Of a stretch of DNA of 27,098 nucleotides, positions 3,899 through 26,797 are shown in pieces; position 1 is the stretch's first letter, and each line of letters begins with the position of its first letter. The translations under genes and the position numbers were made by a program. This DNA comes from an uncultured Syntrophales bacterium (GTDB taxonomy: Bacteria > Desulfobacterota > Desulfomonilia > Desulfomonilales > Desulfomonilaceae), in contig CAZFJT010000001.1 in assembly GCA_964519135.1 (NCBI GenBank), positions 1 through 27,098 on the forward strand, read 5' to 3'. Under the pieces are notes generated by a model. The model saw only the letters and a list, made by a program, of their open reading frames with translations, had not been told where the DNA came from and searched no databases.

Positions 3899-3901
3899 AT
3901 T

Positions 3902-5141: not shown

Positions 5142-5858
5142 TCAAAGACATACTCTTCTGTTAAAAATAGTGGAGAAATTGCTGATTATTTTATTTTTAA
5201 CTTCTTCCCTGGATACAGGTTGACCAATGATCCGCTCAATAGTTGTAAACTTTGCTCCAGGAATACCGCACGGCTCCACAAATCTTGATATGGGATCCAG
5301 GTTCTCCAGATTTATGGCAAAGCCGAACATTGTCACCCAGTCTCTTATTCTTACTCCCATAGAGACGATCTTATTACCACCCACCCACAAACCTATATGG
5401 GCTGGAGTGTCTCTCCTGGGTACGGCTTTGACGCCGAATTCGGCCAGTGTTTCAGAGGAAATGGCCTCAAGGCTTTCCATATATTTAGGGATATTTCTTT
5501 GGGACCCTTCCAATTTTATCACAGGGTAACACACAAGCTGTCCAGGCCAGTGATAAGTCACTCCTCCACCACGTACTGATTTATATAAAGGAATACCCAT
5601 TGATCTGAACTCTTCAATGGTTTTAAGGAGGCCTTTGGGTTGCAACTCATTTTTGTTCTTAAGACCAATGGAGATAGAAGGGGGATGACACATGAACAGG
5701 AGAGTTTCCGACGCGCCGCCACGTTTTATTTCGTTGGCCATTGCGTCCATATCAGCTTCTATATTAACAATCGATACAAGGCCCATGTCTCTGCACAGGC
5801 ATGGAGCTGTAAAAGGCCCTTCAACTGCGTTCAAGATTAGAGGCGGCATTTTAACCAA
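5142..5858 (-). CDS. lipB: Octanoyltransferase LipB-like
   Basis: RGGGVTYHWPGQLVCYP, KIVSMGVRI (catalytic Lys), EPCG (catalytic Cys). Adjacent to the pdh genes. Start is TTG 5858 or ATG 5849. Confidence 0.85.
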   Translation of the reverse strand: MVKMPPLILNAVEGPFTAPCLCRDMGLVSIVNIEADMDAMANEIKRGGASETLLFMCHPPSISIGLKNKNELQPKGLLKTIEEFRSMGIPLYKSVRGGGVTYHWPGQLVCYPVIKLEGSQRNIPKYMESLEAISSETLAEFGVKAVPRRDTPAHIGLWVGGNKIVSMGVRIRDWVTMFGFAINLENLDPISRFVEPCGIPGAKFTTIERIIGQPVSREEVKNKIISNFSTIFNRRVCL

Positions 5859-6101
5859 TCATAATTTCTTAATATGTAATTACTCACTGTGGCCCCATTA
5901 GTTTTCGGAATCGAATCCGGGAATTTTGAATGGGCAGATGTGTTTGCGCTTGTTCCGTACGGGCCCAGAACCGTTTCAATAAGAGTAAATTATAATATTT
6001 TTACTGTTTTTCGAAATATAATGTCACTTGAAATCCGGCCAGGGTTGGGCCCTCCCCATGGATATTGTTAATTACCATGAAGAGGGGTGTACGGATGAAG
6101 T

Positions 6102-6269
6102 TTAATTCCCTGGATCGTACGCTGCGGATCCTGAGTCAACGCAGTCTGAAAGCTCTTCAGGGCTGGCGTTCTTGGGGTCTTTCAGTTGACTCATGTGACA
6201 GATGAATTCGTTTCCCTCTCTGTCTTTTACCCATACCAACGGATCAGAAGGTGTTGTTGCTTCAGCCAT
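6102..6269 (-). CDS. Small acidic hypothetical protein, 55 aa (not in ORF track)
   Basis: Translated by hand: MAEATTPSDPLVWVKDREGNEFICHMSQLKDPKNASPEELSDCVDSGSAAYDPGN*. AAAGGAGAT SD upstream of ATG 6269; TAA at 6102-6104. Confidence 0.75.
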   Translation of the reverse strand: MAEATTPSDPLVWVKDREGNEFICHMSQLKDPKNASPEELSDCVDSGSAAYDPGN

Positions 6270-6318
6270 TTTTAAATCTCCTTTTTTTTGCCAAATCTGA
6301 TCATAGGACCAGAGTTCG

Positions 6319-6337
6319 AGCGTAAAAATTTTACGCT
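6319..6337. promoter_or_regulatory. Palindrome, candidate operator
   Basis: AGCGTAAAA-A-TTTTACGCT (9-bp arms, 1-nt centre), 50 bp upstream of the 55-aa ORF. Confidence 0.35.
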
Positions 6338-6625
6338 GTAAAATTACCAGGGGATTCAGTTTTTGAGATCTATTTTCTCTAAGAGTTTATCTCACATGAA
6401 TGGAATATCCCCCCCAATACCAATATAGAGCCCAGGTTCCATATAAAACCGGGATTCCGGACATCTATATTACAAAACATTATAAACACTGGAATTGCAG
6501 AGGTAAGAGTGTGTCAGGAGAATTAATTGACTGATAATTATGTATATTTCAAGAATAACTAGATTTAAAGTCTGTAAAAAAATATGAAAACCTGGTCTGG
6601 AGGCCGGTGGTTCCGTATTTACGGG

Positions 6626-6907
6626 TCAGTATCTTCCCAGGATATGATCAATGAGCGTATTGGACATTTCCATGAAAATGGCCCTGTATCCACCGGGCCA
6701 GGTGTGTCTTATGGGTGGAGGAGGGACATAGCCGTAATAAATTTGTGATTGATCTTTTACTTGAGGTTGAGTTTTGTGTATGGGCGCCCTGGGAGAATAA
6801 TCGGGCGCGGTAGAGCCCGCCCAGGCCGGAGACCAGGAACAAATAAAAATGAAACATAATATAGTGACAATGCTTCTTATTACTGGTATTGTTGTCTTTT
6901 CTCTCAT
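6626..6907 (-). CDS. Secreted hypothetical protein, 93 aa
   Basis: GAGGT SD; basic n-region, hydrophobic h-region and AWA-G signal peptidase site; YYGYVPPPP motif. Confidence 0.7.
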   Translation of the reverse strand: MREKTTIPVIRSIVTILCFIFICSWSPAWAGSTAPDYSPRAPIHKTQPQVKDQSQIYYGYVPPPPIRHTWPGGYRAIFMEMSNTLIDHILGRY

Positions 6908-7219
6908 TTCTACCTCAGCTAGATATTTTATCCACTTTCCAAGATAAAATCAATTAAAATGGTTTCAAGATTTACTAAGGCCGACAAATAGCGCCCGAAA
7001 ACCGCGTGAGTAAAAATCACGCCTTTTGCTTAAACCGCGAGTGGTTTTCGCTCGCGACGACTGTTTATAAGCTTCTGATATTTAAATGAAATAAAGAGAT
7101 GGGCCATATGCATTTAGCCATGGTTGGAAATAACGCATTTTTCAGGCTTGCCATAAAACAGTCCACAGAAATATAATTAATAATATTAGGTTGATACAAT
7201 GCGCAGCAGTCATTATTAG

Positions 7220-7236
7220 TGGGCACGAATATTGCA
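7220..7236 (+). promoter_or_regulatory. Sigma54 (-24/-12) promoter
   Basis: TGGGCACGAATATTGCA matches 16 of 17 positions of YTGGCACGRNNNTTGCW, with GG (7222-3) and GC (7234-5) exactly 10 nt apart. It faces the chemosensory cluster. Confidence 0.7.
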
Positions 7237-7730
7237 GGCGTTCGTCCTTATGCTAGTGCTATATTGAGATAGTCTCTTTTACTTGTACAAATCTTTGAAG
7301 GAGTTATTTTTAATGATGACCGTTAAATGATCATAAACGGTCGCGTGGGGCTTGAAATCTGAATCATACCAACATAACCAGGACTTTTTATCTTGATTTC
7401 CAGTGCTTGGCCATGATATGCTAGATTATCTCTAAAAGTCGTCAAGAGTAAACCACGCGATCATATACGCATGTTGTAGTAATAGAGATCTTGACACGTT
7501 GTAACGATTGTAAAACGGTATCAACAAAGACTTATAAGCCTCCGGAAGTATTTCATAAGTGCGTTAGGATTCCAGATTTGAATACGCCCTGATAAGCGTT
7601 GAATTTAAGTGGTCGGCCCAGCAAGATAAAGTGTTTTTTAAAAAGGCCTATGTATGAATCTTTGAAAAAAGGGCTTTTACTGTAAAAGGATCAATCAAGT
7701 AAACCTTGTCGGGTCCGGCGCGGGGAAGAA

Positions 7731-8069
7731 ATGGAAAAGGCGCCCCAAGAGGAACACAAAACTGAAGATCTATCCGAGGTCATGGACTTTTCCTCCTATG
7801 ATCTCAGGACAACTGTCCGTCTGGTAATTCATAGCGGTGAGTCCAGGCGTGTGGAAATTAGGCAAGGCAGTAAATGGGGCGCGATATATATAAAGGATGG
7901 GGAACTATATCGTGTAGAAACATCCGAATCAACAGGTGACGAGGCCTTCTTTGAGATACTGGGTTGGAAGAGGGCTTCCCATAATGACCGCATGCAAACT
8001 GAAATAATGGATAGAAACGTCAATATTTCAACTGACGTGTTTCTGGATCTTTTAAACAAGAACGCTTAG
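7731..8069 (+). CDS. Stand-alone DUF4388 (PatA-N-like) domain protein
   Basis: Pattern GAIYIKDGELYRVE...GDEAFFEILGW parallels the DUF4388 segment of the next gene (GLIYVNEGGIVHAE...GVEAFYEIVGW). Confidence 0.7.
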   Translation: MEKAPQEEHKTEDLSEVMDFSSYDLRTTVRLVIHSGESRRVEIRQGSKWGAIYIKDGELYRVETSESTGDEAFFEILGWKRASHNDRMQTEIMDRNVNISTDVFLDLLNKNA

Positions 8070-8213
8070 GGACGCGGAGCATTTTGGGGCCATAATACTA
8101 TTATATGTTAAGTTCCCTTGAAAATATTTAGCAGCCTGCTTTTATAGGTCGCAAGACTTATTCTTGCAGGGTCTGGTGATTTATATCTGAACTTATAGCT
8201 CTGGGAGAGTCCT

Positions 8214-10001
8214 TTGCCTGAACGTAGGATTCTAATATTGGAACAAGGCGCCAAGCTTGGTCACACCATAAAAAGCAGGTTGGAGACCAAAGGGGCCGCG
8301 TTTAGCTTTACTGAAGCCAGCTCAGTGGAAGAGGCTGAAGGCATTGTCTTTAACGAAAAAATCCACATGATTGTTGCCAACCACGACCCAAAGCAAGGAT
8401 TAAACGCCATTGATTTGATAAAAAAGATCAGAGCCAAGCAATCCACAACACATACCGTGGTCATTACCGATAAGGAATATGAAGCCGACCGGAGGGAAGC
8501 ATTATCATACGGATGTTCAGCCTATTTAACGCGACCACTGGCTGATGTTAAGCTTGGGGAATTTGTGTACAACACCCTCTCCAGGCACCAGGGATTCAGG
8601 GGCCGCGTTGTGGATATGCGGCTTGAAGATGTCATTCAAATGTTTTGCTACCGAAAGGACAGCACCCTTTTATCTGTAGTGAATGAAGAAGACAAGGGTC
8701 TGATATATGTAAATGAAGGCGGCATAGTGCATGCTGAAACAGGGGATCTTAGAGGGGTTGAGGCTTTTTATGAAATTGTTGGATGGGAGGCTGGAGAATT
8801 TCTTTCCCAAGTAACCCTGGAAGTGCCTACCCAAACGGTTTACATGGATTGGCAAAGCCTACTGATGGAGGGTATGCGTCAAAAGGACGAAATAAGGCAC
8901 GCATTGGGGCCTTACCCACAAGAGCAAGCATCCCCCCGCGCATCGTCAGCGCCAGCCGCGGGTCGAATAAAATCCAAGAAGATAATGGTTGTGGATGATT
9001 CCAGATTCATTAGAAAGATAGTTCAGGAAATACTAGAATCCGATGAGGCTCTTACAGTGGTAGGATACGCTACCAACGGCCAAGAGGCCCTGGAAAAGAT
9101 CGATGAACTCAAGCCGGATCTCATACTGCTTGATTGGGATATGCCGGTTATGAAAGGCTCCACCACACTGATGCACATAATGATAAGAAGCCCCTGTCCA
9201 GTGGTAGTTCTCAGCGGATTCGTCGGAGGAGTGGGCGCGAATCCTTTTGATTTATTGTGCCTCGGCGCGGTGGACTTTTTGAGAAAACCACAGAACAACT
9301 GGAGAAGGGACGGCAGGGCCAATGACCTTGTGCAAAGGGTTAGGGAAGCCTGTGGAATACATTTTGAGAGAATAAGGCGGGTCAGAATACCCTCCCTTCT
9401 ACCAGAAGACGAACGAGGCCGGGTATCAGGCGCCACAAGCCCATTTTTGGCTGTCATGGGCTCATCAATCGGAGGCTGTTCAGATTTGATACGAATAATT
9501 CCTTCATTAAGTCCTGGTTTAAACGCATCCATAGTTGCTCTCCATGACATGCAGGAGCAGGCTATCGGCGCGTTTGTGGATTATCTGAACAGAAGGTCCA
9601 GGACCCCGGTAAAACAGGTTGAATCAGGTGAACGTCTTATTCAGGGTGTCTGTTACATTCATCCGGCCACTATCCCCTTGGAAGCCCAAAGGGAGAATGG
9701 CCACGTCATACTCAAGGTAATAGCGGATATGCCTGAAACCAATGTCATGGATCATTTTCTTATTTCAGCGTCCAAGGTAATGGGACCCTCCATATTGGGA
9801 ATGCTTCTCTCAGGGGGGCCGGAGGAAAGGGGCGCGGATGGGCTAAGGGCCGTAAAGCAAGCCGAGGGCATTACCGCGATACAGGATCCGGATTCCAGCA
9901 TAGACCCAAGAATGGCCTCAAAAGCGGCGCTAACCGGTGTTGTTGATCACACATGGCCCGCTGACCTTGTGGCTAGATCTTTGGAAAAAATAATTGATTA
10001 A
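8214..10001 (+). CDS. Pseudo-receiver / DUF4388 / receiver / CheB-like esterase fusion, probably catalytically dead
   Basis: aa ~1-122: degenerate REC (LEQ, N56, TRP). aa ~127-227: DUF4388. aa ~255-380: intact REC (VVDDS, D307, KP). aa ~410-595: CheB fold (GSSIGG, LHDMQ, LSGGPEERGADG, QDPDSS). TTG start with GGGAG SD. Confidence 0.85.
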   Translation: MPERRILILEQGAKLGHTIKSRLETKGAAFSFTEASSVEEAEGIVFNEKIHMIVANHDPKQGLNAIDLIKKIRAKQSTTHTVVITDKEYEADRREALSYGCSAYLTRPLADVKLGEFVYNTLSRHQGFRGRVVDMRLEDVIQMFCYRKDSTLLSVVNEEDKGLIYVNEGGIVHAETGDLRGVEAFYEIVGWEAGEFLSQVTLEVPTQTVYMDWQSLLMEGMRQKDEIRHALGPYPQEQASPRASSAPAAGRIKSKKIMVVDDSRFIRKIVQEILESDEALTVVGYATNGQEALEKIDELKPDLILLDWDMPVMKGSTTLMHIMIRSPCPVVVLSGFVGGVGANPFDLLCLGAVDFLRKPQNNWRRDGRANDLVQRVREACGIHFERIRRVRIPSLLPEDERGRVSGATSPFLAVMGSSIGGCSDLIRIIPSLSPGLNASIVALHDMQEQAIGAFVDYLNRRSRTPVKQVESGERLIQGVCYIHPATIPLEAQRENGHVILKVIADMPETNVMDHFLISASKVMGPSILGMLLSGGPEERGADGLRAVKQAEGITAIQDPDSSIDPRMASKAALTGVVDHTWPADLVARSLEKIID

Positions 10002-10051
10002 AATGGAGACATCACGGTGGAAAGTCGTCCAAACAAGACAGGAGAGTAACC

Positions 10052-10594
10052 ATGAACGGCAATAATAACCCCCAACTAGGCTCAGGAGATGTTGCTGAAA
10101 TTGCGCAAATGATAAGTTTCTCCATCGGCTCTGAGCAATTCGGCCTAAATATCTTGATGGTTAAGGAAATCATCATGATCCCGGAAATTACGGAGATCCC
10201 GAACTCTCCTGATTTTGTGGAGGGGGTTATTAATCTGCGCGGTGAGATAATGCCTGTTCTGGATCTCAGGAAGAGATTAAGGCTCAGGGGTGTGCAGACC
10301 GAAGCCAAAAGGGGCCCGGGCAACCGTATTCTGGTTGTGGAAATAGAAGGCAACATTACTGGTTTTATAGTGGATTCAGTATCAAAGGTCCTTTCAGTTC
10401 CTATGAACAAGGTATTTCCACCTCCGGACATAATAGTTGGAGGTGTCCAGAGCCAGTACATCAGCGGAGTGGTGCACTTGGACGACAGAATTCTAGTTAT
10501 TCTGGATTTTGGAAAGATTCTTTCCCATGATGAGAAAGATGTGCTGGAAAGGGTTCCCAGACTAGCGCCTGAACAGGTGGGCGGCGCGTTGTAA
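10052..10594 (+). CDS. cheW: Chemotaxis coupling protein CheW
   Basis: ITEIPNSPDFVEGVINLRGEIMPVLDLRKRL; GFIVDSVSKV. Confidence 0.95.
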   Translation: MNGNNNPQLGSGDVAEIAQMISFSIGSEQFGLNILMVKEIIMIPEITEIPNSPDFVEGVINLRGEIMPVLDLRKRLRLRGVQTEAKRGPGNRILVVEIEGNITGFIVDSVSKVLSVPMNKVFPPPDIIVGGVQSQYISGVVHLDDRILVILDFGKILSHDEKDVLERVPRLAPEQVGGAL

Positions 10595-10702
10595 ATATAC
10601 GTAGCAATTATAGTATACAGGTGAATCAGTGAACCAAACAGGAAAACATGCGGTTAGTCCGCTAGCAATCTATACTTTCGACGAATCCCAGGAGGAATGG
10701 CA

Positions 10703-13129
10703 ATGGCGTTCTCATTTAAGAACATCTTCGGAAGAATAGGGTTCGGTAGAACTCTTAGGAACAAGCTCCTTGTAGCTTTTCTCTTACTCTCACTAATCCC
10801 TTTTGGAATCGCCGCTTATATGGCGTACTATTACATCCAGGACGTTGCCGAGAATCAGGCGTACAGTCAGATGCAGCGTATGTCCCAGGACGCTTTGCAC
10901 ACTGCGAACGTTTATATGAACGAACGTGTGGCTGACCAGTTGGTGTGGTCTGAGCTCAGGGTTGTCAAGGAAGCCCTTGATGTTGCAGAGGTAAGGGAGG
11001 ACGCCACTGAAACCCTGAAAGAGCTCGTCAAGTACTATGGTTCCTATGAAGCTATTATGGTGCTCAATAATAAGGGCACGTGCGTTGTGTCGAGCTGGCC
11101 TGGATTCGTTGGTCAGAGCTTCGGTAAAGACCCTCTTTTTAGGGGTCCAACAAAGGGGCAAAACTATGTAAGTGGGTTCCAGGTAGATAAAAGGATCAGG
11201 AAGATCAACCCAAAGGGTCAAGGTTTTACACTTGTCTTCTCAGTTCCCATTAAGATTGGAGGCAAGGTATCAGGTGTTGTGGCCTCCTTCTTTAAATGGT
11301 CGGCCCTTACGGAGATCCTTGACGAATTTAGACTGGGAAAGACCGGCCACGTTGGTGTTATTAATAAAGACTTGAAATATATTTATTATCCTAGAGATAT
11401 CGATCCTGGTCTTCTCTTAAAAACAGTTGGATCTAAAGGCCGTACAGCACTCCGAGACGCCATTAGGAACAAGCAGCACTCTTTTACTTATTCCAGGAAA
11501 GATCCTAAAACGGGGGTTCCAACTACAAGAATCGCTGATATTGAGTACGCGACTACAAAATACAAGAACTTTCCGGCCACAGGATGGTTCGTTTACGCTT
11601 CCGCGGATAGATCTCAGATTCTCTCCGCCCTACCTGGGGTTATTCGAAACCTTGCAATAGTCGCGGCGGTTATTTTGGCCTTGGTTGTTATAGCCACATT
11701 CTTCATCGCTGGAACCATTTCCCGGCCAATCACAGGTTTGGCCAATGTTATGGCCCAGGTTGACGAAAACTTGGATCTTACAATCAGGGCGCCTGTGACC
11801 ACACAGGATGAAACCGGTCAGACAGCCGAGACGTTCAACCGTCTTCTGGAGAACTTCCAGAATTCATTTACGTCGGTTCTTGATGCGGTTGTCAGGGTCC
11901 GGGAGTCTTCTTCTGAGGTTAATGAGGTTACCCAAAGGATCGTTGTTAACGCGACAGCCCAGTCAGAGCGTGCAAGGAACGTGCTCGACAGGGTCGGCGC
12001 GATGGGTGAAACAGCCCAGGAGGTCTCTTCAAACGCTCAGGAGACCCAGAGAGCAGCGTCCGACACGGATGAACGCATGAGGATAACCACCTCTAATATT
12101 GAAAGTGTCGCTGAAAGGTCAAGGGTCCAGCTTGAGCATTCCACTGAAACAGCAAATATTATCGATCAAATGGGTGAAACAGCCAGGGCGGTTGCTGAAA
12201 GGGCCAATGACCAGGCCGAGGCCGCCCGTGTTACAACTGAAGCCGTTTCCCGTATTGCCCAGGAAATTCAGGAAGTGGCCAGAGGCGCGGATGAAGCGAA
12301 TCAGCAATCGGCTCTCACCGACCGTTTTGCCCGTGAGGGTGGAGAGGCCGTCGACCAGGTGGTTGGCGGTATGAGGAGTATCGCTGAAGCGTCTGAACAG
12401 ATCAACGAAATCATGGACGTTATTTCGTCAATTGCCGAGCAAACGAACTTGCTGGCCTTGAACGCAGCTATTGAGGCGGCAAGGGCCGGTGAACACGGTA
12501 AAGGTTTTGCGGTTGTTGCGGACGAAGTTAGAAAGCTCGCTGAGAGAACCGCTGAATCAACCAACGAGATTGGAGAGCTCATTCGAGAAAGTAACCGACG
12601 TGTTGAGGAAGGAGAACGACTGTCCGCGATGAGCCGTGACGCTCTTACCCAAATTCAGGACGGTGTTGTGAAGACCAATGAGCTCATCTCCAGTATTACC
12701 GAGGGAACGGTCAGGCAAACCCAGGAAATTGGCGATGTGCAGAGGGCCATGGACAGGATGACACAGCTTGCCCAGGAAATTCTCAAGCTTACGGATGAGC
12801 AGGCCAGCAGAAGGGTCCAGGCCGCTGAATCTATGACCACGGTGCGTGAGGAGGCCATGACGGTTACCCAATCCGCTGAACAAGAGGTTGTTACAGCGGC
12901 GGCGGTTGCCGAATCCATGATCGGGGTTACAGAGCGAGCCGAAAATATCGCTAAACTCACTGGATTGCAGACTGAGCGTTCAGCGATTCTCAGACAGATT
13001 ATGGCTGAAATGTCCGAAACAGCGGCCGCTAACGCAGAGGGCGCAGCAGGGGCTTCTGATACTACATTGAAACTTGCTAATGTTGCTGAAGAGCTCGCCC
13101 AGCTCGTTGAGCAATTCAAAATTCAGTAG
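10703..13129 (+). CDS. Methyl-accepting chemotaxis-family receptor: TM-dCache-like-TM-HAMP-extended signalling domain
   Basis: Two TM helices and HAMP ([13 protein letters not shown]); tip [44 protein letters not shown] is 7 nt before ATG 10703. Residue numbers elsewhere count from the track start 10697. Confidence 0.95.
12002..12184 (+). repeat. Exact 15-bp repeat within the MCP, 168 nt (8 heptads) apart
   Basis: ATGGGTGAAACAGCC at 12002-12016 and 12170-12184 (MGETA twice). Confidence 0.85.
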
Positions 13130-13186
13130 CGCGCTTTTGTTTAATTGGAGCTCTGGAGTGCGCATATCAGGGTAATGAGGTGAACA

Positions 13187-13546
13187 ATGGGCGTGAGGGT
13201 CCTAGTGGTTGATGATTCTGGTTTTATGAGGAAACGGGTTTGTGAGCAACTTGAAGCTCAAGGTCACTCCGTGATCGGAGAGGCCAAGGGTGGAAATGAA
13301 GCTGTTGAAATGTTCAAGACGCTCAAACCCGACCTTATAACCATGGATATTACCATGCGTGATAAAGATGGAATCACAGCGGCAAAAGAGATTATGGAAT
13401 TGGATCCTCAGGCCAAAATCCTTTTTCTGACCATACTCAAGGATGAGAAATATAAAGCCGAAGCAAAAGATATAGGCGCCATCGGTTTTTTGAACAAAAC
13501 CGATCAGAACTCTATTGCAGAGGTTCTTAAGGGTTTAGACATATAG
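13187..13546 (+). CDS. cheY: Single-domain response regulator, CheY-like
   Basis: VVDDSGFMR, PDLITMD(54)ITM, FLT and LNK; GAGGTG SD; lies in a che cluster. Confidence 0.88.
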   Translation: MGVRVLVVDDSGFMRKRVCEQLEAQGHSVIGEAKGGNEAVEMFKTLKPDLITMDITMRDKDGITAAKEIMELDPQAKILFLTILKDEKYKAEAKDIGAIGFLNKTDQNSIAEVLKGLDI

Positions 13547-13780: not shown

Positions 13781-14542
13781 ATGGCCCCAAATCAAAGCGC
13801 CACTAGGGATGTAAGAGGTTCAAACGCTTTGTCTTCGAACAGGAGAGAAGGGAGCGCCAATGGACGCGCCTCAGTCTTGTTCCAAAAATCCTGGGCGCAT
13901 AAGTTAATTCCGATTGCATTGGCTCTTGCGGCAATAGTGGCCATCGGAATCACAACAAAGGTGGTCTGGGACCTTAACTTGAAGGGTCAGGCGTACCGAG
14001 GTATTTCGGCCTCCAAATCAGTTGAGCCGGGAACAAACACAGAACACATAGTAGCAGCGCCCATAGTAAATGGAATAGGAGTATACCAAAAAGCATTGGG
14101 GTCTTTTAGGCGAGGCCTGTATCTGATAATGGCCACAATCGCGATATCTTTTATAAGTATTCTGGCGCTCTTTATAAGCAAATTCGTTGTTCCCTTGAAC
14201 ACCATATCTAATGTGGTCCGGACAATGGCCGACGGAGATCTTACAATATCCGCGCCTGAAAAACTGCCTGATGACATGAGGTCTTTAGGCAAAGGATTGA
14301 ATGATTTGGCGGCCAACTTTCAGGAAGTCTTGCTTTTTACCGGAACCATGTGTGGAAACTTAAAATCTGAACTGGCTGCGCTGGAAGCTGATTTGTCAAG
14401 TGAAAACAGCACACTTGACCCGGAACAAATAAAAGCCGAGATTGCCGGACTTAGATCTGAGATAGAAATACTCTCTGAAATGGTTGAACAGTTCAAATAT
14501 TATCAGGTGGAATTTGATGGCAGTGAAGTTAAACCCAAATGA
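13781..14542 (+). CDS. Two-TM HAMP protein, MCP-like but without the signalling hairpin
   Basis: TM1, short loop, TM2, HAMP (PLNTISNVVRTMADGDLT...DDMRSLGKGLNDL), short coiled coil ending LSEMVEQFK like the MCP's LAQLVEQFK. Confidence 0.8.
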   Translation: MAPNQSATRDVRGSNALSSNRREGSANGRASVLFQKSWAHKLIPIALALAAIVAIGITTKVVWDLNLKGQAYRGISASKSVEPGTNTEHIVAAPIVNGIGVYQKALGSFRRGLYLIMATIAISFISILALFISKFVVPLNTISNVVRTMADGDLTISAPEKLPDDMRSLGKGLNDLAANFQEVLLFTGTMCGNLKSELAALEADLSSENSTLDPEQIKAEIAGLRSEIEILSEMVEQFKYYQVEFDGSEVKPK

Positions 14543-14688: not shown

Positions 14689-17600
14689 ATGATAGACATC
14701 GAACTCCTGGAAGATTACACCACTGAGGCGCGAGAAGTTTTAGACGACCTGGACGCCAACCTCATTCGTTTAGAGCAGGAGGGCGCCACCCAGGAAACCC
14801 TCAATAATGTTTTTCGGGCGGCCCACTCAATAAAAGGCTCGGCAGAGTACATCGGACTGGATCGTTCCAGCGCCCTGACCCATGGTGTTGAAACATTACT
14901 GGATCTATTACGGGAAGGAATGTTGGAAGTTACTCAGGAAGTGGTGGAATTCCTTTTTAAGGCCAAAGACTGTATATCCGCTCTGGTGGACGAGGTAGCA
15001 AGAGATCACGAGGAAAAAACAGATATATCCGGTCTTTTATCAGAGCTTGAAATACTGGTAAGCAAGTCTGATAAATCATCAGAAGTTTCGGAGATTACGG
15101 CGATAATAGAAGAGGCTGTGCAGGAGCGGCCAGAACCGGCTGAACAGGATCTCATTGAAGGACATGATGAAGAGCTGGAAACCCAAGGGCCGCAGGAAGA
15201 AGATCTCGAAGCGGACTTCATGCAACCTGAGGCTTTTTTCTCTGAATCGGACCGAGAGGAACTCGGAACTGCTCTCAATCAAATAGTAGAGTCTGATAGG
15301 GAATCCGAGCCGGATCAGTCTGCGATTCCAGCCACAGAAGACCTGGTTGAAAGACCTTATCCGGAAGATGATGATGAAACACCAACCGGGGAATTGGACG
15401 CAGGGACCACACTGGAAGAGACGGTTCCTCACCTGCTCAATCTATCATTGTACCTGGATGATCTGGCCGATGGCATCGCCATAGAGGAAGCGCTAACCTC
15501 CTTTTCTGAAACCGTTTCAAGATTGACCAGATCAATGGAGTTCCTGCAGATCCCTGAGGCTGTTACCATATTGGAATCATTGGAAGCTTCGGTAAATTCA
15601 TTGGATCTGGTTGATCAAAAGGTCAGTGATGATGAAATATCACGTTTGAGATTGCAATTACATGATCTTAGACCCTGCTATCCAGCGGATATATTTCCAT
15701 GGCCCGAATCTGAGGATGAACACACCCAGGAGGAGCCCACCGAGGACTTTGTAAAAAGGGATTTCTACTTACAATTGGAAAGTATCAAAGGTCTTGATCC
15801 GGGATTCTACGATAACCTGTACGACGCGGGTTTCACTTCTATTGCACAGTTGGCGGGCTCGTCCTTCAGTTCACTCTCTAACCTCCCGGGCATGACGGAT
15901 CAAGCCGCTGAAGCGATAATCTCCGCGCTCAAACCTGAACCTGTTCCAAAGAAGAAGGTCCCCGCCCGCGCGCCTGCCGCTCCTAAATCCATGCTCGCTG
16001 ATGTGGATGATGATCTTTTGAGCGAATTTGAGGGTATGTTTCAAGATGTGGAATCAGCTAAGGGTCAGGGCAAGTCCATTGGGGAATTGGACCCATCAGA
16101 TGAGCTGTTTGTTGATATCCAGGCTATTGGAGAAGATACGGACAAGGAAATAATGGAGATCTTCCTATCATATGGATGGGAAATAGTAGATAAGATCCAT
16201 GCAATTGTGGACAAGGTGAAAAAAGGCAAGACCGAGCAGAGCGACCTGCTGGCCTGCGCGGACCTGGTGAAATCGATTAAATCCTCTTCCACTTATATGG
16301 ATTTTCAGAATCTTGCCCTATTCCTGGACGATTGGTACGAACGATCCCTTTGGGCGGCTGAAAGGGTTGAATCGTTAACTGAAGAAGAGCTTAATTTCAT
16401 CCCAAAGGTATTTGATCGTTTTGAGAAATTTCTCCATGCTTTAGAAGGGGCCATGAAGCCTGAGACCAAAGCCCCAATTAAACAGAAGCCCCCAGAGCCT
16501 GCGCCGCGCCCAACAAAGGAAGCCCGGAAGACCAGACCTGAAGAACCAATGCGCAAGCAAGCCGAATACGAGCCTATCCAGGAAACAACCAAGCACCCAA
16601 AGGCGCCTGAAATCGAAGAGGCGCCGCCCCAGGCCGACGCTGCTGCAACCAAGCCCAAGGCGCCCATGACGGAAACATTTGAAGTGGAGATGGTTTCAGA
16701 TAAGACGTCCACTGCAAAGGCGGAAGCTCCCGGCGGGCCTGTTGGTCAATTTGAAGGAGACGTTTCCCTTACAAGGGATTCCTCTGCTGAAAGTCCTGTT
16801 GTCAGGACTATGCGTGTGGATTCTTCAAAGGTTGATTTACTCCTGAACCAGGTAGGAGAACTAGTTGTTAACAGGTCATATGTGGAGCAGTTGTCCAATG
16901 AGCTCAAGCTATTCCAAAGGGAAATTGCCGCAGCCACAAAAGTGGGTAAAGATGAGTCTGTGGCGATTCGTGACATCACCACAAAGTTGGGAGAAGCCGC
17001 GTTGTCCCTTGGTCGTGTGGCGACGGACATACAAGAAGGGGTTATGAAATTGAGGATGTTGCCGGTGGGGCAACTCTTCAACAGAATGCCCAGACTGATT
17101 CGCGATCTTTCCAGACGAATGGGCAAGAATATCTCGTTACATGTCATGGGTGGAGACACCGAGGTGGATAAACGGGTAATAGAGCAGGTTTATAATCCTC
17201 TGGTCCATTTGATACGCAACGCGGTGGATCACGGAATAGAAGACAAGGAATCCAGGCTCAAACTCGGTAAAAAAGAAGAGGGTAATATAACGCTCAACGC
17301 CTACTCCCAAGGCAACCACGTGGTTATTGACGTTGAGGATGATGGTGGTGGGATAAACACCAAAGCTGTTCTTAACAGGGCCGTGGAGAACAGGCTTTTG
17401 GACGCGGGCGAGGCCAAGCGACTAAGCCCGGAAGAAACGTACAACTTCCTATTCGTTCCAGGATTCTCGACAAGTAACAAGGTTACGAGAACATCCGGCA
17501 GGGGAGTGGGAATGGATGTTGTAAAAAAGGACGTGGAGAAGATAAGCGGACATGTTGAGGTACAGTCAAGAGAGAACCAAGGAACAAAAGTCTCCATAAA

Positions 17601-18102
17601 GATCCCCCTGACCCTTGCCATTATTCAAGCCCTCCTGGTTAGGTCCGGCAAGCACTGCTTTGCCATACCTTTGACCTCAGTGAGGGAAATCGTTCAGATC
17701 ATGCCCCATGAAATAACCACCATAGAGGGCTTTGAGGTGATCAGGTTCCGTGAAGACACAGTGCCGATACTCAGACTTGGGGATATTTTCAACATTGATG
17801 TGGATCCAAGGTTGGAGAATGAAGGATTCCTGATTTTGGCCAGCGCGGGTCTTAAGACCATCGGATTCCTTGTACAAGGCCTTATTGGTGAACAGGACGT
17901 GGTGATAAAGCCTTTGGCGGAGCATGTGTTCAAAAGCAGAGGGTTGGCTGGATCCACTATTCTTGGTGACGGCACAATAGCCCTTGTGATGGACGTGGCC
18001 GAAATAGTGGATGACGTAATAGCCTCTAAGCGAAGGATGATAGCCATGCAATCCAATGGGTATAACCAATCTATCCTTGATGAGGGAAGGCCGGAAGCCT
18101 GA
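14689..18102 (+). CDS. cheA: Chemotaxis histidine kinase CheA, 1137 aa, with expanded N-terminal half
   Basis: P1 FRAAH(46)SIKG; P3 RVDSSKVDLLLNQVGELVV; P4 HLIRNAVDHGIE, DDGGG, FVPGFST, SGRGVGMDVV; C-terminal P5/CheW domain. Confidence 0.96.
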   Translation: MIDIELLEDYTTEAREVLDDLDANLIRLEQEGATQETLNNVFRAAHSIKGSAEYIGLDRSSALTHGVETLLDLLREGMLEVTQEVVEFLFKAKDCISALVDEVARDHEEKTDISGLLSELEILVSKSDKSSEVSEITAIIEEAVQERPEPAEQDLIEGHDEELETQGPQEEDLEADFMQPEAFFSESDREELGTALNQIVESDRESEPDQSAIPATEDLVERPYPEDDDETPTGELDAGTTLEETVPHLLNLSLYLDDLADGIAIEEALTSFSETVSRLTRSMEFLQIPEAVTILESLEASVNSLDLVDQKVSDDEISRLRLQLHDLRPCYPADIFPWPESEDEHTQEEPTEDFVKRDFYLQLESIKGLDPGFYDNLYDAGFTSIAQLAGSSFSSLSNLPGMTDQAAEAIISALKPEPVPKKKVPARAPAAPKSMLADVDDDLLSEFEGMFQDVESAKGQGKSIGELDPSDELFVDIQAIGEDTDKEIMEIFLSYGWEIVDKIHAIVDKVKKGKTEQSDLLACADLVKSIKSSSTYMDFQNLALFLDDWYERSLWAAERVESLTEEELNFIPKVFDRFEKFLHALEGAMKPETKAPIKQKPPEPAPRPTKEARKTRPEEPMRKQAEYEPIQETTKHPKAPEIEEAPPQADAAATKPKAPMTETFEVEMVSDKTSTAKAEAPGGPVGQFEGDVSLTRDSSAESPVVRTMRVDSSKVDLLLNQVGELVVNRSYVEQLSNELKLFQREIAAATKVGKDESVAIRDITTKLGEAALSLGRVATDIQEGVMKLRMLPVGQLFNRMPRLIRDLSRRMGKNISLHVMGGDTEVDKRVIEQVYNPLVHLIRNAVDHGIEDKESRLKLGKKEEGNITLNAYSQGNHVVIDVEDDGGGINTKAVLNRAVENRLLDAGEAKRLSPEETYNFLFVPGFSTSNKVTRTSGRGVGMDVVKKDVEKISGHVEVQSRENQGTKVSIKIPLTLAIIQALLVRSGKHCFAIPLTSVREIVQIMPHEITTIEGFEVIRFREDTVPILRLGDIFNIDVDPRLENEGFLILASAGLKTIGFLVQGLIGEQDVVIKPLAEHVFKSRGLAGSTILGDGTIALVMDVAEIVDDVIASKRRMIAMQSNGYNQSILDEGRPEA

Positions 18103-18226: not shown

Positions 18227-19000
18227 ATGGGCCAGCTTGTAGCAATAATCAGCCAAAAAGGGGGGGTTGGGAAGACTTCAACTGCCGTAAATCTTGGCGC
18301 GTGCCTCTCGGCGCTAAAAAGACGGGTTTTACTGGTTGGTATGGATCCTCAATGTGGCCTGGCGCAAAGCTTTGGGCTGGAGATTTCTTCCGATTCCGAT
18401 GGCATGTTCAGCGCGATTAAAGGGAATGCGCGCATGGATCATATCATTCATCAGACGAATCCTAGATTACCAAGATTGGATATGGCGGCGTGCAATATCT
18501 CATCCGCGGCTCAGGAGATAGAGTATTTAAACATACTTCAGGCGAATCCATCAATGCTGGCCGAGCTTCTCAATGATATGCGGCCACACTATGATTATAT
18601 CTTCATAGATTGCCCCCCAAGATTGGACAGTCCGACTCAGTCTGCGTTGATAGCCGCTGACTCCTATTTGGTTCCCGTCCAATGCGAATACGCCTCAGTA
18701 GGCACAGTGGGAGCGGTGTTGAGATCAGCGCTGGAAGTGAAAAGACTAAAAAATCCCGGACTCGGCATTTTCGGATTTCTGATCACAATGGCTGACAAAA
18801 GGGCCTCTTTTACATACGGCGTCATTAAGGAGATAAGGCAATATCTTAAGGAAAGGGTTTTTAAAACAATTATTCCCCGCGATCCTAAATTGGCTGAGGT
18901 CCCTGTTAGGCAATCTCCCATAATTGCTTACGACAAGAATGCTGTCGGCGCCAGGGCCTACATACAATTGGCGCGGGAAATCCTCAGTAAATCTAGTTAA
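18227..19000 (+). CDS. ParA/Soj-family ATPase within the chemosensory cluster
   Basis: Deviant Walker A KGGVGKT, MDPQ, Walker B YDYIFIDCPP, VPVQCE and IIPR. Confidence 0.92.
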   Translation: MGQLVAIISQKGGVGKTSTAVNLGACLSALKRRVLLVGMDPQCGLAQSFGLEISSDSDGMFSAIKGNARMDHIIHQTNPRLPRLDMAACNISSAAQEIEYLNILQANPSMLAELLNDMRPHYDYIFIDCPPRLDSPTQSALIAADSYLVPVQCEYASVGTVGAVLRSALEVKRLKNPGLGIFGFLITMADKRASFTYGVIKEIRQYLKERVFKTIIPRDPKLAEVPVRQSPIIAYDKNAVGARAYIQLAREILSKSS

Positions 19001-19184: not shown

Positions 19185-20249
19185 ATGGATGATATTTCAA
19201 ACAATAAACGGGTTCGAGTTCTTGTGGTGGACGATTCCGCTCTCATGCGTAAGCAGATAAGCTCGATTTTGGAATCAGACTCTCAATTGAGTGTTGTGGG
19301 GGACGCAAAAGATGGTGAAGACGCTTTGGCCAAGATTGGGGAACTCAAACCTGATGTTGTTACATTAGATGTTGAAATGCCCCGCATGAACGGCATAACC
19401 GCCTTGAAACACATAATGTTGAAGCACGCCATTCCCACGGTAATGATTAGCGCTCTAACAAGCGAGGGATCAAAGACCACTTTTGACGCTTTGAGATACG
19501 GAGCGGTCGAGGTTATCTCAAAACCCTCCAGGCGAGATACCGATAGTTTGGAAGCCCAGAGTAAGGACATAATTTCCAAGGTAAAAAGGGCGGCCGTAAT
19601 AAGAACCGGAAGGCTTAAGTATGTTAGAGTCGCTGGGGACGAGGCTATGAAGTCCGCTGAAAACATGACGCCCGCTGATAATGATACTGCGGTAGTGGGA
19701 ATGGTTACCGGAACAGGCGGTTATTATACTCTGTTAAGAATCATTCCGGCCTTGGCCCCTGATTTCAGTGGAGTCATAGTTGCTGTGATGAATATAAGAT
19801 CCAAATATGTAGAGCCATTTATCACATATTTGCAAGCCCATAGCAGGGCGCCTGTCCAGACGGTGAAAGGCATGGCCTCTCCAAAACAAGGTTGCTGCTA
19901 TGTATGCGCGTCAGAGGATCTGCCGGTAATTGAGAAATCCAATGACAGCGCCCTAAGAATAAGGCTGGAAGGGCCATCGGATCACCCTTTAAACCCAGGC
20001 CCATTGGATCGTTTTTTAATGTCCCTGTCTTTTGCATTGGTTGAAAAATCTGTTGGAATAATCTTAACAGGCGCTGGAAAGGACGGAGCTGAAGGACTCG
20101 CCAGCATTCGTCACGCTGGAGGAATCGCGGCGATACAGGATATCAACAACTGCGCGGACCCATCCATGCCGTTGGCCTGCCTTGAAAAGGGCACAGTGGA
20201 CAGGATAATACCTGATTATGAATTGGCTGATTTCATTAATAGCGTTTAG
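19185..20249 (+). CDS. cheB: CheB-like response regulator (REC + esterase fold) lacking the catalytic Ser and His
   Basis: REC: VVDDSALMR, D62 (LDVEMP), SKP. Esterase fold: VTGTGG, VMNIR, ILTGAGKDGAEG. Confidence 0.88.
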   Translation: MDDISNNKRVRVLVVDDSALMRKQISSILESDSQLSVVGDAKDGEDALAKIGELKPDVVTLDVEMPRMNGITALKHIMLKHAIPTVMISALTSEGSKTTFDALRYGAVEVISKPSRRDTDSLEAQSKDIISKVKRAAVIRTGRLKYVRVAGDEAMKSAENMTPADNDTAVVGMVTGTGGYYTLLRIIPALAPDFSGVIVAVMNIRSKYVEPFITYLQAHSRAPVQTVKGMASPKQGCCYVCASEDLPVIEKSNDSALRIRLEGPSDHPLNPGPLDRFLMSLSFALVEKSVGIILTGAGKDGAEGLASIRHAGGIAAIQDINNCADPSMPLACLEKGTVDRIIPDYELADFINSV

Positions 20250-20581: not shown

Positions 20582-21322
20582 CTATTGTTTTATAGAGTAA
20601 GGGAATTCAAGGCCTGGATTATGTTTCCCATGAATTTTCTTAATCTTTTTTATGTCATCTTTGAAGGCGCCCCATTCCTTATTGATCCAAACAGCTTTTG
20701 ATTGAAAAATTTCCGCCATGGTTTCCATCATTACCGTTAAATTTACGAAAACAGGTCTTATTACAGTATCTTCCGTGAAATAGACCAGAACAGGCGCTGC
20801 ATTTTGCTCTTTGCTTTCACAATCCACAAAATAGTATTCATCCTGGAATTGAAACACAGGGAACCATGCTTTGCGCCAGCCTGAAAGTAATCTTGTATCC
20901 ACTAAGGTTTTATACTCTGAGATGGCGCGATCAAGCGTCAAAAAATCATGGTACCAAATAAATGGAACATTGGAGGCCGGGTCGCATCCATTGTAAAGGT
21001 TGTACAAATCTATCAGCTCCTTTGGCGGGCGTAGCCCCAGACCAAGGAACTTCTCTTTTATCAAGCTTTCACTGAGACCCGGTTGAAGGGATTTTGCCAC
21101 TTCCGGCGCATTATTGTCATGCCATTGTTTGATCAGGACAATGGACTCCGACAATCTTTTAGTATCATACGCGTTATCAGCGGCTACCATAAGCGTCTTA
21201 TCAGCGCCGGGCCATTTTATCATGCGCTCTTTTTTGCAACCTTGCGAGGTGATACAAATCGCCCCAATCACTAAAAATAGCGGGAATAAATCTAAACCGA
21301 TCCTATGGGAAAATGATCTCAA
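20582..21322 (-). CDS. SMI1/KNR4 (SUKH) family protein with putative lipoprotein signal
   Basis: LQPGLSESLI...LGLRPPKELIDLYNLYNG and WFPV...YYFVDC patterns; hydrophobic stretch followed by TSQG-C. Confidence 0.75.
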   Translation of the reverse strand: MRSFSHRIGLDLFPLFLVIGAICITSQGCKKERMIKWPGADKTLMVAADNAYDTKRLSESIVLIKQWHDNNAPEVAKSLQPGLSESLIKEKFLGLGLRPPKELIDLYNLYNGCDPASNVPFIWYHDFLTLDRAISEYKTLVDTRLLSGWRKAWFPVFQFQDEYYFVDCESKEQNAAPVLVYFTEDTVIRPVFVNLTVMMETMAEIFQSKAVWINKEWGAFKDDIKKIKKIHGKHNPGLEFPYSIKQ

Positions 21323-21350
21323 TCTGATCCATTAACCAATGACAATAGAT

Positions 21351-21659
21351 CTAAACACTGCAAGCGCATGAGTGGTCTTGCTCTGGCGCCCCTATTTCCT
21401 CCACCAATTCTAAAGTCGCGCCACTTTTTCTAACAAGATCCGCGCTCTCCAATTGATCGAGCAAAATATCGCATTCTTCCCGGGATTTGGATAGATACAC
21501 AGGCAGTAGCTCCTGAACTCGATCCAGGTCATCGGCCAGTTTTAGGGAGTATAGGTTCACAAGCACTTGGAGGTGCAGAAAATCCAGGCCTGCAGAGGAT
21601 ATTTTTTCATTGATTACCTGATCTGTCATCACCAGTTGGCTTACACCATCAGAACACAT
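21351..21659 (-). CDS. Hypothetical protein, 102 aa, winged-helix-like with Cys/His termini
   Basis: AGGAG SD; LLDQLESADLVRK resembles a wHTH; begins MCSDG and ends DHSCACSV. Confidence 0.75.
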   Translation of the reverse strand: MCSDGVSQLVMTDQVINEKISSAGLDFLHLQVLVNLYSLKLADDLDRVQELLPVYLSKSREECDILLDQLESADLVRKSGATLELVEEIGAPEQDHSCACSV

Positions 21660-21732
21660 GATATTCTCCTATGACGCCGCGATGGTCGCAATAAACTTTT
21701 GGAATAACGATAGGGGAACTATTGAGTCTCCT

Positions 21733-22611
21733 CTATAATACTTTGTTCAAATCATATTCTATTATACCAGTGGCCCCGGCTTTTAAAAGTTTTGGTATGA
21801 GGGACCGGACCACCTCTTCTGAGACCACTGACTCCACTGAAAATGAATCTGATTTATAATGTCCGGCCACAGTCGGCGCCTCGAGTGAAGGTAGCAAGCC
21901 TACCACTATGTCCAGTTTATCCTTTGCCACATTCATCTTCAGGCCAACCATCTTTCTGGCTTCCAAGGCCGCTTGTAGAAGCAAATGGATCTGATCGATC
22001 TTTTCCTTTTTAAAAGGATCTTTATAAGATTGATGGTTTGAGATGAACTGGGTGTTGGTTGTGAGCAGTGTATGAATGATCTTGAGTCCATTTGCCCGCA
22101 ATGTGCTACCTGTTTCAGTAACATCCACAATTGCGTCAACAACGCCTTCTTTTACCTTGGCTTCTGTGCTGCCCCAGGAAAACTCTACCTCTATGGGTAT
22201 GTTTCTTTCTGAGAAAAACTCCTTTGTAACGCGCGTCAGCTCAGTGGCTATTCTCTTGCCTGCCAGATCTTCAGGTTTTTCATATCCGGACTCTCCATCA
22301 ACGGCAAGAACCCACCTGGCGGGATGCTGGGATACCTTTGAATACACGAGATCATCTATGACTTTCACGTCAGAGCCGTTCTCCATTATCCAATCCTTGC
22401 CGGTCAGCCCCGCGTCAAAAAGTCCTGATTCAACATACCTGGAGATCTCCTGGGCCCTGAGTCTTGCCAAAACCAGCTCTTCATCATCCACAGTGGGAAA
22501 GTAACTCCTGGGTGATATGTTAATGTTCCAGCCGGCCCTGGCGAACAGATCAACTGTGGCCTGTTCCAGGCTTCCCTTTGGTATTATAAGCTTTAAGGGT
22601 TCCCTATTCAT
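21733..22611 (-). CDS. hisG: ATP phosphoribosyltransferase, long form
   Basis: [40 protein letters not shown]; C-terminal regulatory domain (LPSLEAPTV). Confidence 0.96.
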
Positions 22612-22957
22612 CTATTTCCTTGAATTCTCCGTTTTCTTCTATTCGCCTGAAGAAGCAGCTCCATCTCTTTGTATGGCATGCTCCATCCCCCTGCTGATCC
22701 ACGAGCAATAGTATGGTGTCGGAATCACAATCCACCAGCACATCCCGCACAATCTGGATATCGCCCGATGTGTCGCCCTTTCGCCATAACTCACTTCTGG
22801 AACGGCTCCAATAGCAGGCTCTCTTCTCTTTTAAGGTGGTTTCAAGGGCCTGTTTGTTCATATAGGCCAGCATAAGGACCTTTCCGGTCTTTACATCTTG
22901 GGCTATTGCAGGAACCAGCCCTCCGGATTTTTCAAAATCAACATCCAGTTGATCCAA
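22604..22957 (-). CDS. hisI: Phosphoribosyl-AMP cyclohydrolase
   Basis: [47 protein letters not shown] 22957 is 9 nt after GAGGAG and avoids overlap with the upstream gene. The stop overlaps the hisG ATG. Confidence 0.95.
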
Positions 22958-22970
22958 TGTTCTAGACTCC

Positions 22971-23363
22971 TCATCTTGTAATAGGGGGTTCCCCCTGATC
23001 ACTCATGAATTCTCTTTCCAGGGCGCCCAGCAGGGCAAGTACCAAGTTTGAGGCAACCTGGGCCTTTTGCAGATCTATTGATCCATCCATAACTCCCTGT
23101 AAGAGGTAATTTAATACACCAATGGCCTCTTGGGGGTTATTAACTTGAAATGAGCCCGGATCTTCCATTTGAGCGCCTCCTTGGGCGATAATACCTGCGC
23201 GTTTTGCTGTTGCCCCTTTACCATGGCCCCTTTTTTCCAGGATATCCTCAAATATCTCTATGGCCTCTGGAGTATAATCATCCCGCTCATATTTTAATAT
23301 TTCCAGAATTTCTTCAGTTGATTTCTCTTCAAGAACCGTACGGTCAACACTATAATCAGCCAC
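22971..23363 (-). CDS. Hypothetical helical protein
   Basis: GTG 23363 is 5 nt after GGAGG (the track uses 23375); [20 protein letters not shown]; its stop overlaps the hisI SD, implying an operon. Confidence 0.75.
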
Positions 23364-26200: not shown

Positions 26201-26797
26201 TCAGGACTCACTCAATTCAGCGTAATACTTAGATAACGTCTCTCTGACCCAATTCCTGGCCCTATGCAGTCTGGATTTTACCGCAGGAACTGAACACTCC
26301 ATAATGTCCGCCACCTCAGCAAGGCTGAAACCTTCAACATCTTTAAGGACGATTGTTGATCTGTAAAGAACCGGCAATTCTTCTATTGCCTCCTCTATCT
26401 GCTTCTTGCCTTCCTGGGATAGCAAAAGGCTCTGGGGAGTCTTCACATAAGCTTCTGAAGATCCCAAATGTGGAAAATCAGCGCCCACTTTTACTCCATC
26501 ATCGTACTCCACACTCTCGGGTCTCTTTTTTCTCAAGTACATAAGGGCGTTATTAGTGGCTATTCTAAAGAGCCAAGTGGAAAACGATGACGCCCCTGTA
26601 AAATTCTTCAATCCTCTGTAAGCGTTCAAGAATGTTTCCTGTAATAGGTCTTCCGCAAGGGACGGATCTTTAACCATTTTGCTCAAGTGTCTGTATATCC
26701 TGCCTTCATATTGATCCACAAGGTCTTCAAATGCGTCGAAATCCCCGTTTGCCGCTGATTCCACCAGGTTTTGTTCTTGGGATTTTTGTAAACTCAT
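26201..26797 (-). CDS. ECF RNA polymerase sigma factor
   Basis: Region 2 AEDLLQETFLNAY...FSTWLFRIATN; region 4 LKDVEGFSLAEVADIMECSVPAVKSRLHRAR. Confidence 0.95.
   Translation of the reverse strand: MSLQKSQEQNLVESAANGDFDAFEDLVDQYEGRIYRHLSKMVKDPSLAEDLLQETFLNAYRGLKNFTGASSFSTWLFRIATNNALMYLRKKRPESVEYDDGVKVGADFPHLGSSEAYVKTPQSLLLSQEGKKQIEEAIEELPVLYRSTIVLKDVEGFSLAEVADIMECSVPAVKSRLHRARNWVRETLSKYYAELSES

Follow-up and report, generated by a model that had tools for sequence, protein, structure and literature searches.

The architecture of the chemotaxis histidine kinase CheA is thought to vary mainly by the copy number of its histidine phosphotransfer (HPt) domains, the presence of the P2 domain and the fusion of receiver (REC) domains. 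Here, we describe a CheA in which a helix-hairpin-helix (HhH) domain lies between P1 and P3. It is encoded in a stretch of 27,098 nucleotides, referred to below as the window, from an uncultured Syntrophales bacterium of sulfate-reducer type that GTDB places in the Desulfomonilaceae of the Desulfobacterota (assembly GCA_964519135.1, contig CAZFJT010000001.1, positions 1 to 27,098 of the forward strand), and its gene belongs to a chemosensory cluster with a ParA-family ATPase. Domains made of two HhH motifs, written (HhH)2, are classic sequence-independent DNA binders, and the backbone amides of their G-h-G hairpins contact DNA phosphates. The acidic repeats (AR) of the transcription factor NusA bind proteins, not nucleic acid; the AR1-AR2 tandem at its C-terminus binds the C-terminal domain of the RNA polymerase alpha subunit (alpha-CTD) and lambda N.

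Two kinds of described chemosensory system come close to this locus. The first is that of Vibrio, where a clade-specific CheA domain, CheA-LID, is present only with the ParC/ParP system (PMC5706961). The CheA described here likewise has a clade-specific extra domain and a ParA-like ATPase in its che cluster, but the cluster contains no ParP gene and its ATPase is nearest to Soj/ParA structures. The second comprises the nucleoid-associated arrays, represented by PpfA of R. sphaeroides and the basic tail of FrzCD in M. xanthus (PMC11407121, PMC5716589). Shared features are a ParA-family ATPase that belongs to the chemosensory cluster and the idea of an array component that touches DNA non-specifically; there, however, the element in contact with DNA or ParA is a basic tail on a receptor, whereas here the candidate element is a folded acidic domain on the kinase and the receptor spans the membrane. 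Literature searches for CheA with a helix-hairpin-helix and for Desulfomonile chemotaxis gave nothing relevant in the searchable literature, and a CheA with an HhH domain is an architecture undescribed in the literature searched.

The HhH domain and its place in CheA

Residues ~351-415 of CheA (15739..15933, plus strand) form one (HhH)2 domain, which folds independently and is of the HHH_5 type; this identity is secure. The original prediction, made from the letters alone, had recognized at 15775-15930 a tandem HhH module of the kind found in the NusA AR repeats and the RadA N-terminal domain. Translation of this plus-strand segment gives exactly the 52 residues quoted there (aa 363-414), which form the core of a folded domain that begins one helix earlier, at aa ~351 (window 15739). 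The Pfam family HHH_5 (PF14520, gathering score 27) matches aa 362-415 above threshold both in the whole protein (29.9 bits) and in the isolated segment (34.0 bits, E 4e-8), and the same match is precomputed in most orthologues. A family profile built from 23 orthologous segments found E. coli NusA as its best match, with both AR1 and AR2 aligned (E 1.5e-10), followed at E 1e-9 to 1e-5 by the HhH repeats of Topo V, domain 5 of Hel308/Hjm, the N-terminus of archaeal eL32 and the N-terminal domains of RadA/Rad51.

The predicted structure agrees with these matches. AlphaFold2, run on the isolated domain with the same alignment, gave five helices (H3-13, H20-29, H34-38, H42-46, H53-63) at a mean predicted local distance difference test score (pLDDT) of 80.5, and the full-length model has them at 352-363, 371-379, 385-389, 393-397 and 404-414 (pLDDT ~83). 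They make up two HhH motifs and a connector helix, the composition by which an (HhH)2 domain is defined. All 50 Foldseek matches listed from the PDB were (HhH)2 proteins; the top ones, at probability 1.00, were RadA, RAD51, ERCC1-XPF, NusA AR2, RuvA domain II and UvrC. The likeness to the N-terminal domains of RadA/Rad51, the HHH_5 archetype, consists of membership of the same Pfam family, a root-mean-square deviation (rmsd) of 1.2-1.6 A over 50-57 residues and a conserved AG[FY]xS/T motif; the CheA domain differs in having no RecA core, and in the window clade it has none of the basic hairpin residues of its basic relatives in other CheAs. The tandem HhH assignment was confirmed in this way by Pfam, profile, AlphaFold2 and Foldseek alike. 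No opposite-strand open reading frame (ORF) of at least 80 aa overlaps the segment. The segment shows no GC anomaly, the whole window lacks Rfam families, and there is thus no sign that the domain was inserted recently.

The CheA that carries the domain (14689..18102, plus strand; 1137 aa) has the complement of a histidine kinase, with Pfam matches to Hpt (aa 5-100), HHH_5 (362-415), H-kinase_dim (706-788), HATPase_c (836-975) and CheW (980-1109); the NCBIfam CheA models cover the kinase core alone. P1 is a true HPt domain (14689..15063; Pfam Hpt E 1.7e-16) that spans aa 1-125 at a pLDDT of ~90 in the full-length AlphaFold2 model, which was built on a 25-sequence alignment, and its phospho-accepting His46 lies in FRAAHSIKGSAEY. 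The core consists of the P3 dimerisation, P4 ATPase and P5 CheW-like domains (16804..18018). Since His46 does not vary in the 25 orthologues and the core residues of P4 are likewise invariant, the kinase itself looks functional, as far as can be predicted from its residues.

Between P1 and P3, three extra beads are strung on disordered linkers, namely bundle B1, the (HhH)2 domain and bundle B2, and the full-length model has the appearance of beads on a string. An acidic disordered linker (aa 129-235; 15073..15393; pLDDT <50) leads from P1 to B1 (aa 242-335; 15412..15693), a four-helix bundle (242-261, 265-285, 289-303 and 314-325; pLDDT 80-91) with Ser at the His position. On either side of the HhH domain, at aa 340-349 and 417-467, the pLDDT is below 50. 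The downstream side comprises a Pro/Lys-rich linker of net charge +3 (aa 416-432; 15934..15984) and an acidic motif, KSMLADVDDDLLSEFEGMF (aa 433-450; 15985..16038). It is followed by B2 (aa 469-589; 16093..16455), a five-helix bundle (pLDDT 85-90), and by a long Pro-rich disordered linker at 593-709, before P3.

The HhH module had originally been described as sitting between two HPt-like bundles, for which the support is weaker than for the HhH fold; the description suits the downstream bundle better than the upstream one. By hhalign, B2 aligns to the protein's own P1 across 81 columns (E 1.9e-4) and has Lys, within VKSIKSSSTYMDF, in place of His46, and its profile matches Pfam-verified Hpt domains of other CheAs; judged by these alignments, B2 is a degenerate HPt. 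A profile of the acidic motif and B2 found no match among PDB sequences, and the HPt-likeness is therefore documented through the own P1 and through other CheAs. B1 appears marginally HPt-like: its E against the own P1 is 8e-4, and it aligns weakly to the P1 domain found in a Pseudomonas CheA. The P2-type Pfam families PF07194 and PF09078 did not match the window CheA even at E <= 10, although the same search flagged both of them elsewhere, in other CheAs. The initial observations that the HhH lies outside the canonical P1-P5 layout and that no P2 is to be seen were thus both correct. The three-bead stretch occupies the P2 place of a canonical CheA, and the rest of the kinase is intact.

The acidic motif behind the HhH domain has the clade consensus RSLLADVDDELLxEFEG. 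It is clade-specific and the best-conserved stretch between P1 and P3 (mean pairwise identity 76%), and it lies in a low-confidence disordered region with a short helix in the AlphaFold2 model. Its LADVDDELLxEFEG part resembles SILSQAEIDALL of E. coli FliM and QVDDLLDSLGF of CheZ, and it is equally similar to the helix with which HPt domains ordinarily begin. Because of this equal likeness, the idea of a CheY-binding peptide is kept as a lead only; the motif could be a real docking element for CheY or CheB.

Distribution, conservation and loss of the domain

A search with the full-length CheA found ~34 orthologue clusters (46-75% identity, 1074-1215 aa), of which those with names belong to Desulfomonile or Thermodesulfobacteriota metagenome-assembled genomes (MAGs); PF14520 was present in none of the ~85 further CheAs among the matches listed. 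A homologue search with the mid-region only had given six fragments, several of them frameshifted, and the full-length search was used instead. One genome per GTDB species was then scanned with clade-specific peptide patterns, which located 34 loci, all in Desulfomonilaceae, Desulfomonilales, 'Syntrophaceae' or Thermodesulfobacteriota MAGs. The HhH was detected in 32 of them; its presence in orthologous CheAs was a point on which the original prediction depended. In an exhaustive profile search of 1.8 billion representatives, the complete mid-region was found in about a dozen 50%-identity clusters, and a collinear arrangement of B1, HhH and B2 in four much more divergent CheAs. The architecture is rare, at a few dozen protein clusters among 5.8 billion, and its phylogenetic range is narrow. 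Several metagenomic copies of the CheA (P0001, P0004, P0005/P0006, L003, L008, L011 and L034) are split or frameshifted, with out-of-frame C-termini or two to four ORFs; these are probably long-read assembly errors, not pseudogenes.

Gene order was judged where the contig was long enough and free of frameshifts, and it was constant: small PATAN, PATAN-REC-CheB, CheW, dCache-HAMP methyl-accepting chemotaxis protein (MCP), CheY, HAMP-only protein, CheA, ParA and CheB. The divergent relatives have the order (CheR or CheB)-CheW-MCP-CheY-HAMP-only-CheA-CheB-ParA. As an accessory domain, the HhH is specific to a lineage and to one type of chemosensory cluster, found in the Desulfomonilaceae and a few other Desulfobacterota, and an HhH-bearing CheA marks this compact, strictly syntenic cluster type with a Soj-like ParA and no recognisable ParP. 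Sister CheAs (P0041, P0043 and P0044) are long proteins with two true Hpt domains, without the HhH and without the HAMP-only gene.

Within CheA, the HhH is the folded domain with the lowest mean pairwise identity, 34%, as compared to 43% for B1, 54% for B2, 68% for P1 and 71-76% for P3-P5. Its conserved columns are core L/G/A/F residues. The linkers reach 16-22% (17% for the acidic linker after P1), half the value of the HhH, which indicates that purifying selection on the fold persists. The window HhH itself departs from the clade consensus at several residues, with K for P in hairpin 1 and S for a near-invariant D.

The domain is cleanly missing from P0012/L007, where a short acidic linker is found, from P0034 and P0131, and from L033, where ~90 aa of low complexity take its place. 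In a bootstrapped neighbour-joining tree made from the kinase core, P0012, P0034 and P0131 fall in three separate places within a clade of 100% support, and the window protein has P0012 as its sister (89% bootstrap). The HhH was lost independently at least three times in this clade, with the other parts kept; L007 and L033 also keep ParA and all other genes of the cluster. Deeper in the tree, the mutual relationships of four groups received 17-51% support and their branching could not be read, so the case for a single origin of the HhH is that of the collinear architecture.

This pattern bears on the alternative that the HhH is a decaying or purely structural element, whose ancestor was functional, probably in DNA binding, and which now serves as a folded spacer in the P1-P3 tether with no specific ligand. 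A domain of this kind would be expected to look much as the HhH does, being the least conserved of the folded domains and conserved at core positions alone, degenerate at consensus residues in the window protein itself, lost cleanly at least three times, including in the nearest relative of the window CheA, and exchanged in L033 for a low-complexity linker. Nevertheless, 32 of the 34 species-level loci retain it with a confident fold, and it is clearly better conserved than the linkers that flank it, and we regard a mere spacer as unlikely. If it were one, the finding would do no more than refine how a few dozen uncultured Desulfobacterota are annotated.

Charge, hairpins and the possible function of the domain

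The surface and the hairpins of the domain differ from those of a typical DNA-binding HhH. In alignment A1, the net charge of the 54-residue core lies between -10 and -1 over the 23 sequences that have the HhH, and that of the full envelope is -13 to +1 across ~40 clade sequences, with -3/-4 in the window. The window hairpins are KGLD and PGMT, and those of the clade are PG[VLIMF][DESTQ] in hairpin 1 and PG[VLM][TSE] in hairpin 2, so that the second glycine of the G-h-G motif is absent from both hairpins in window and clade. The canonical DNA-binding combination of a G-h-G hairpin with a basic surface is not found in the window clade. In E. coli NusA, AR1 and AR2 have the hairpins EGLD and EGLT, and the repeats are acidic. 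The CheA domain is of this AR type, as an acidic (HhH)2 domain nearest in sequence to AR1/AR2, with the same five-helix fold and the same G-h-D and G-h-T hairpins. It differs from the NusA repeats in being single and internal to a histidine kinase, whereas NusA is a transcription factor with a tandem pair. No HhH-type partner is encoded in the CheA cluster; it is by sequence and fold that docking is likened here to that of NusA.

A different form of the domain is found in the four divergent CheAs with a collinear B1-HhH-B2 arrangement, which are P0147, P0169 (Candidatus Zymogenus saltonus), P0180 and P0184. Their HhH is basic (+1 to +6) and has G-[LV]-G hairpins, with IPGVG or IKGLG in hairpin 1. 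It also matches Pfam HHH, HHH_2 and the pol-lambda fingers domain, and its PDB matches include eL32, RadA, UvrC, ComEA, Hjm and FAAP24, with NusA not among them. By these features, the basic canonical HhH of the rare deeper relatives may bind DNA.

The first function suggested for the HhH was that of a nucleoid tether, in which it binds chromosomal DNA non-specifically and holds the kinase or the array at the nucleoid surface, where a Soj-type ParA operates. The domain does belong to a family of DNA binders, with the RadA/Rad51 N-terminal domain, RuvA, UvrC and ERCC1-XPF among its top matches; the neighbouring ATPase is Soj-like, and nucleoid-based positioning of arrays is known (PMC11407121, PMC5716589). 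The four basic canonical HhH domains occur in the same cluster type with ParA, and the linker after the window HhH is mildly basic. On the other hand, the HhH is acidic and has lost the second glycine of both hairpins in the window and in ~40 clade members, the 450 residues around it are strongly acidic, and the domain is dispensable while ParA stays. The array is also expected to be membrane-bound, because the MCP of the cluster is a transmembrane dCache receptor. The idea of a tether is weakened by these results, as the basic canonical form is confined to rare deeper relatives, and for the window clade it is improbable.

The reading that we favour, tentatively and at somewhat less than even chance, is that the HhH, on the kinase's flexible arm, is a dispensable, NusA-AR-like module for protein docking at low specificity. 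Protein binding by the domain and a lack of DNA binding are what we infer from several features: the acidic charge, the hairpins without a second glycine and the best match to NusA AR1/AR2; the beads-on-a-string linkers and the position in the P2 place without a P2 Pfam match; the low conservation and repeated clean loss, which are expected of an accessory docking domain; and the precedent of CheA-LID (PMC5706961). In such a role, the domain would behave like P2 or the Vibrio CheA-LID and not as a clamp on DNA: a partner encoded in the same cluster would be enriched near the kinase, and the obvious candidates are the basic ParA (pI ~9) and the REC-domain proteins. A replacement of the CheY-binding P2 domain had also been proposed originally. 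The parallel is fitting in the place between P1 and P3, in the linkers, which are flexible, in dispensability and in weak conservation, P2 being the least conserved part of CheA as well; it fails in the fold, since P2 is alpha/beta and the HhH all-helical and unrelated to the P2 families. A charge comparison with CheY, which showed no complementarity, does not speak either way.

Several points weigh against docking. No partner is singled out: charge compensation between the HhH and ParA (by its isoelectric point, pI), the N-terminal tail of the HAMP-only protein or CheY was sought over acidic-HhH, basic-HhH and HhH-less lineages, and no pattern was found. Acidity is no strict bar to DNA binding, and the HHH_5 domains of RadA/Rad51 match nearly as well as those of NusA. 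The repeated loss and the weak surface conservation fit equally well with the absence of any specific partner, and the basic canonical HhH of the deeper relatives suggests that the ancestral role may have been nucleic-acid binding.

The ATPase encoded next to CheA (18227..19000, plus strand; 257 aa, pI 9.1; Pfam AAA_31 / CbiA) is a Soj-type member of the ParA/MinD family; 8RAY, a protein of the ParA family, is its best PDB match (E 2.5e-50), and Soj comes next. Its gene lies directly 3' of cheA in all complete related loci and after cheA-cheB in the divergent relatives. ParA is basic (pI 8.2-9.6) in both acidic-HhH and basic-HhH lineages. HhH-bearing clusters have a plain ParA of 256-260 aa, and the HhH-less members of the clade keep one of 259-260 aa. 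The HhH-less sister clusters have a ParA of 313-322 aa with an N-terminal Zn_ribbon_4/5 (L037 6989-7939, L038 12730-13698, L039 12704-13645); zinc-ribbon and plain ParA could be alternative ways to couple ParA to cargo or matrix. In the window, Pfam showed no gene for a ParP-like CheW-domain adaptor adjoining parA.

It had also been suggested that the HhH docks ParA, and in its strongest form this would make the domain a dedicated adaptor by which the ParA-like ATPase recognises the array, in place of ParP or the TlpT N-terminus. ParA does follow CheA (or CheA-CheB) in every HhH-bearing locus and has no ParP-like adaptor beside it, a basic ParA faces an acidic HhH, and the HhH-less sister CheAs are paired with the zinc-ribbon ParA instead. 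The co-occurrence, however, is one-sided: ParA is always found beside an HhH-bearing CheA and is also found without one, being retained, unchanged in size, in the HhH-less loci L007 and L033 and present beside the HhH-less sister CheAs. The HhH does not co-vary with ParA, and the link to ParA therefore belongs to the cluster and not specifically to the HhH. Moreover, ParA is equally basic where the HhH is basic, and the mid-region profile, compared by hhalign with the ParC/ParP-type Pseudomonas CheA P0111, gave a weak HPt-like match alone (E 0.065; the bounds of LID in P0111 are unconfirmed). Known ParA partners act via short basic N-terminal peptides, a mode unlike that of a folded acidic domain. 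Docking of ParA has lost ground through these results, and a dedicated ParA adaptor is very improbable.

A broader scenario, which we consider quite improbable, is that in a ParA-partitioned array the positioning handle is carried by the kinase and not by a receptor or a ParP-like adaptor. The ancestral basic HhH would clamp the array to the nucleoid next to a Soj-type ParA, and the acidic, possibly DNA-mimicking form of the Desulfomonilaceae would directly engage the basic ParA or another protein of the cluster. If true, array positioning would have a third solution, one not seen before, in the kinase-borne handle, and the change from DNA binder to protein binder could be followed between lineages. 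More generally, should the HhH prove to be a docking or positioning handle, it would open a new way into the question of how chemosensory cargo is recognised by ParA-family ATPases, and its basic and acidic versions would be a natural pair for studying the switch from DNA to protein binding.

The chemosensory cluster and its flanks

The part of the cluster upstream of cheA (7731..13546, plus strand) encodes the small PATAN protein, PATAN-REC-CheB, CheW, the dCache-HAMP MCP and CheY, assigned by Pfam and in the order of the related loci. Its PATAN(DUF4388)-REC-CheB fusion at 8214-10001 is unusual and is preceded by the stand-alone small PATAN at 7731-8069. The HAMP-only membrane protein (13781..14542, plus strand; 253 aa; Pfam HAMP 132-181) adjoins the 5' side of each HhH-bearing CheA examined and is missing from the HhH-less sister clusters. 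Its N-terminal tail is variable and mostly basic. This protein is a candidate for a co-evolving partner or an array component.

Downstream of parA lies a second CheB, a REC-methylesterase identified by Pfam and NCBIfam (19185..20249, plus strand). With it, the CheB-type genes of the cluster number two, while CheR is missing; in the Ca. Zymogenus relative, CheR is found in the place of the first CheB (L035 1-786).

On the 5' side, ~1.9 kb (5859-7730) separate the che cluster from a lipoate-ligase-like gene (5142-5858, minus strand). This interval, in which there is no ORF of at least 100 aa and no Rfam match, could be either a decayed gene or an extended regulatory region. Both flanks of the cluster consist of housekeeping genes. 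The minus-strand flank at 65-5858 encodes E1 alpha, E1 beta, E2 and E3 of a 2-oxoacid dehydrogenase complex together with the lipoyl ligase, and the downstream flank encodes a SUKH/SMI1 protein, HisG and PRA-CH at 20582-23002 and an ECF sigma factor at 26201-26797.

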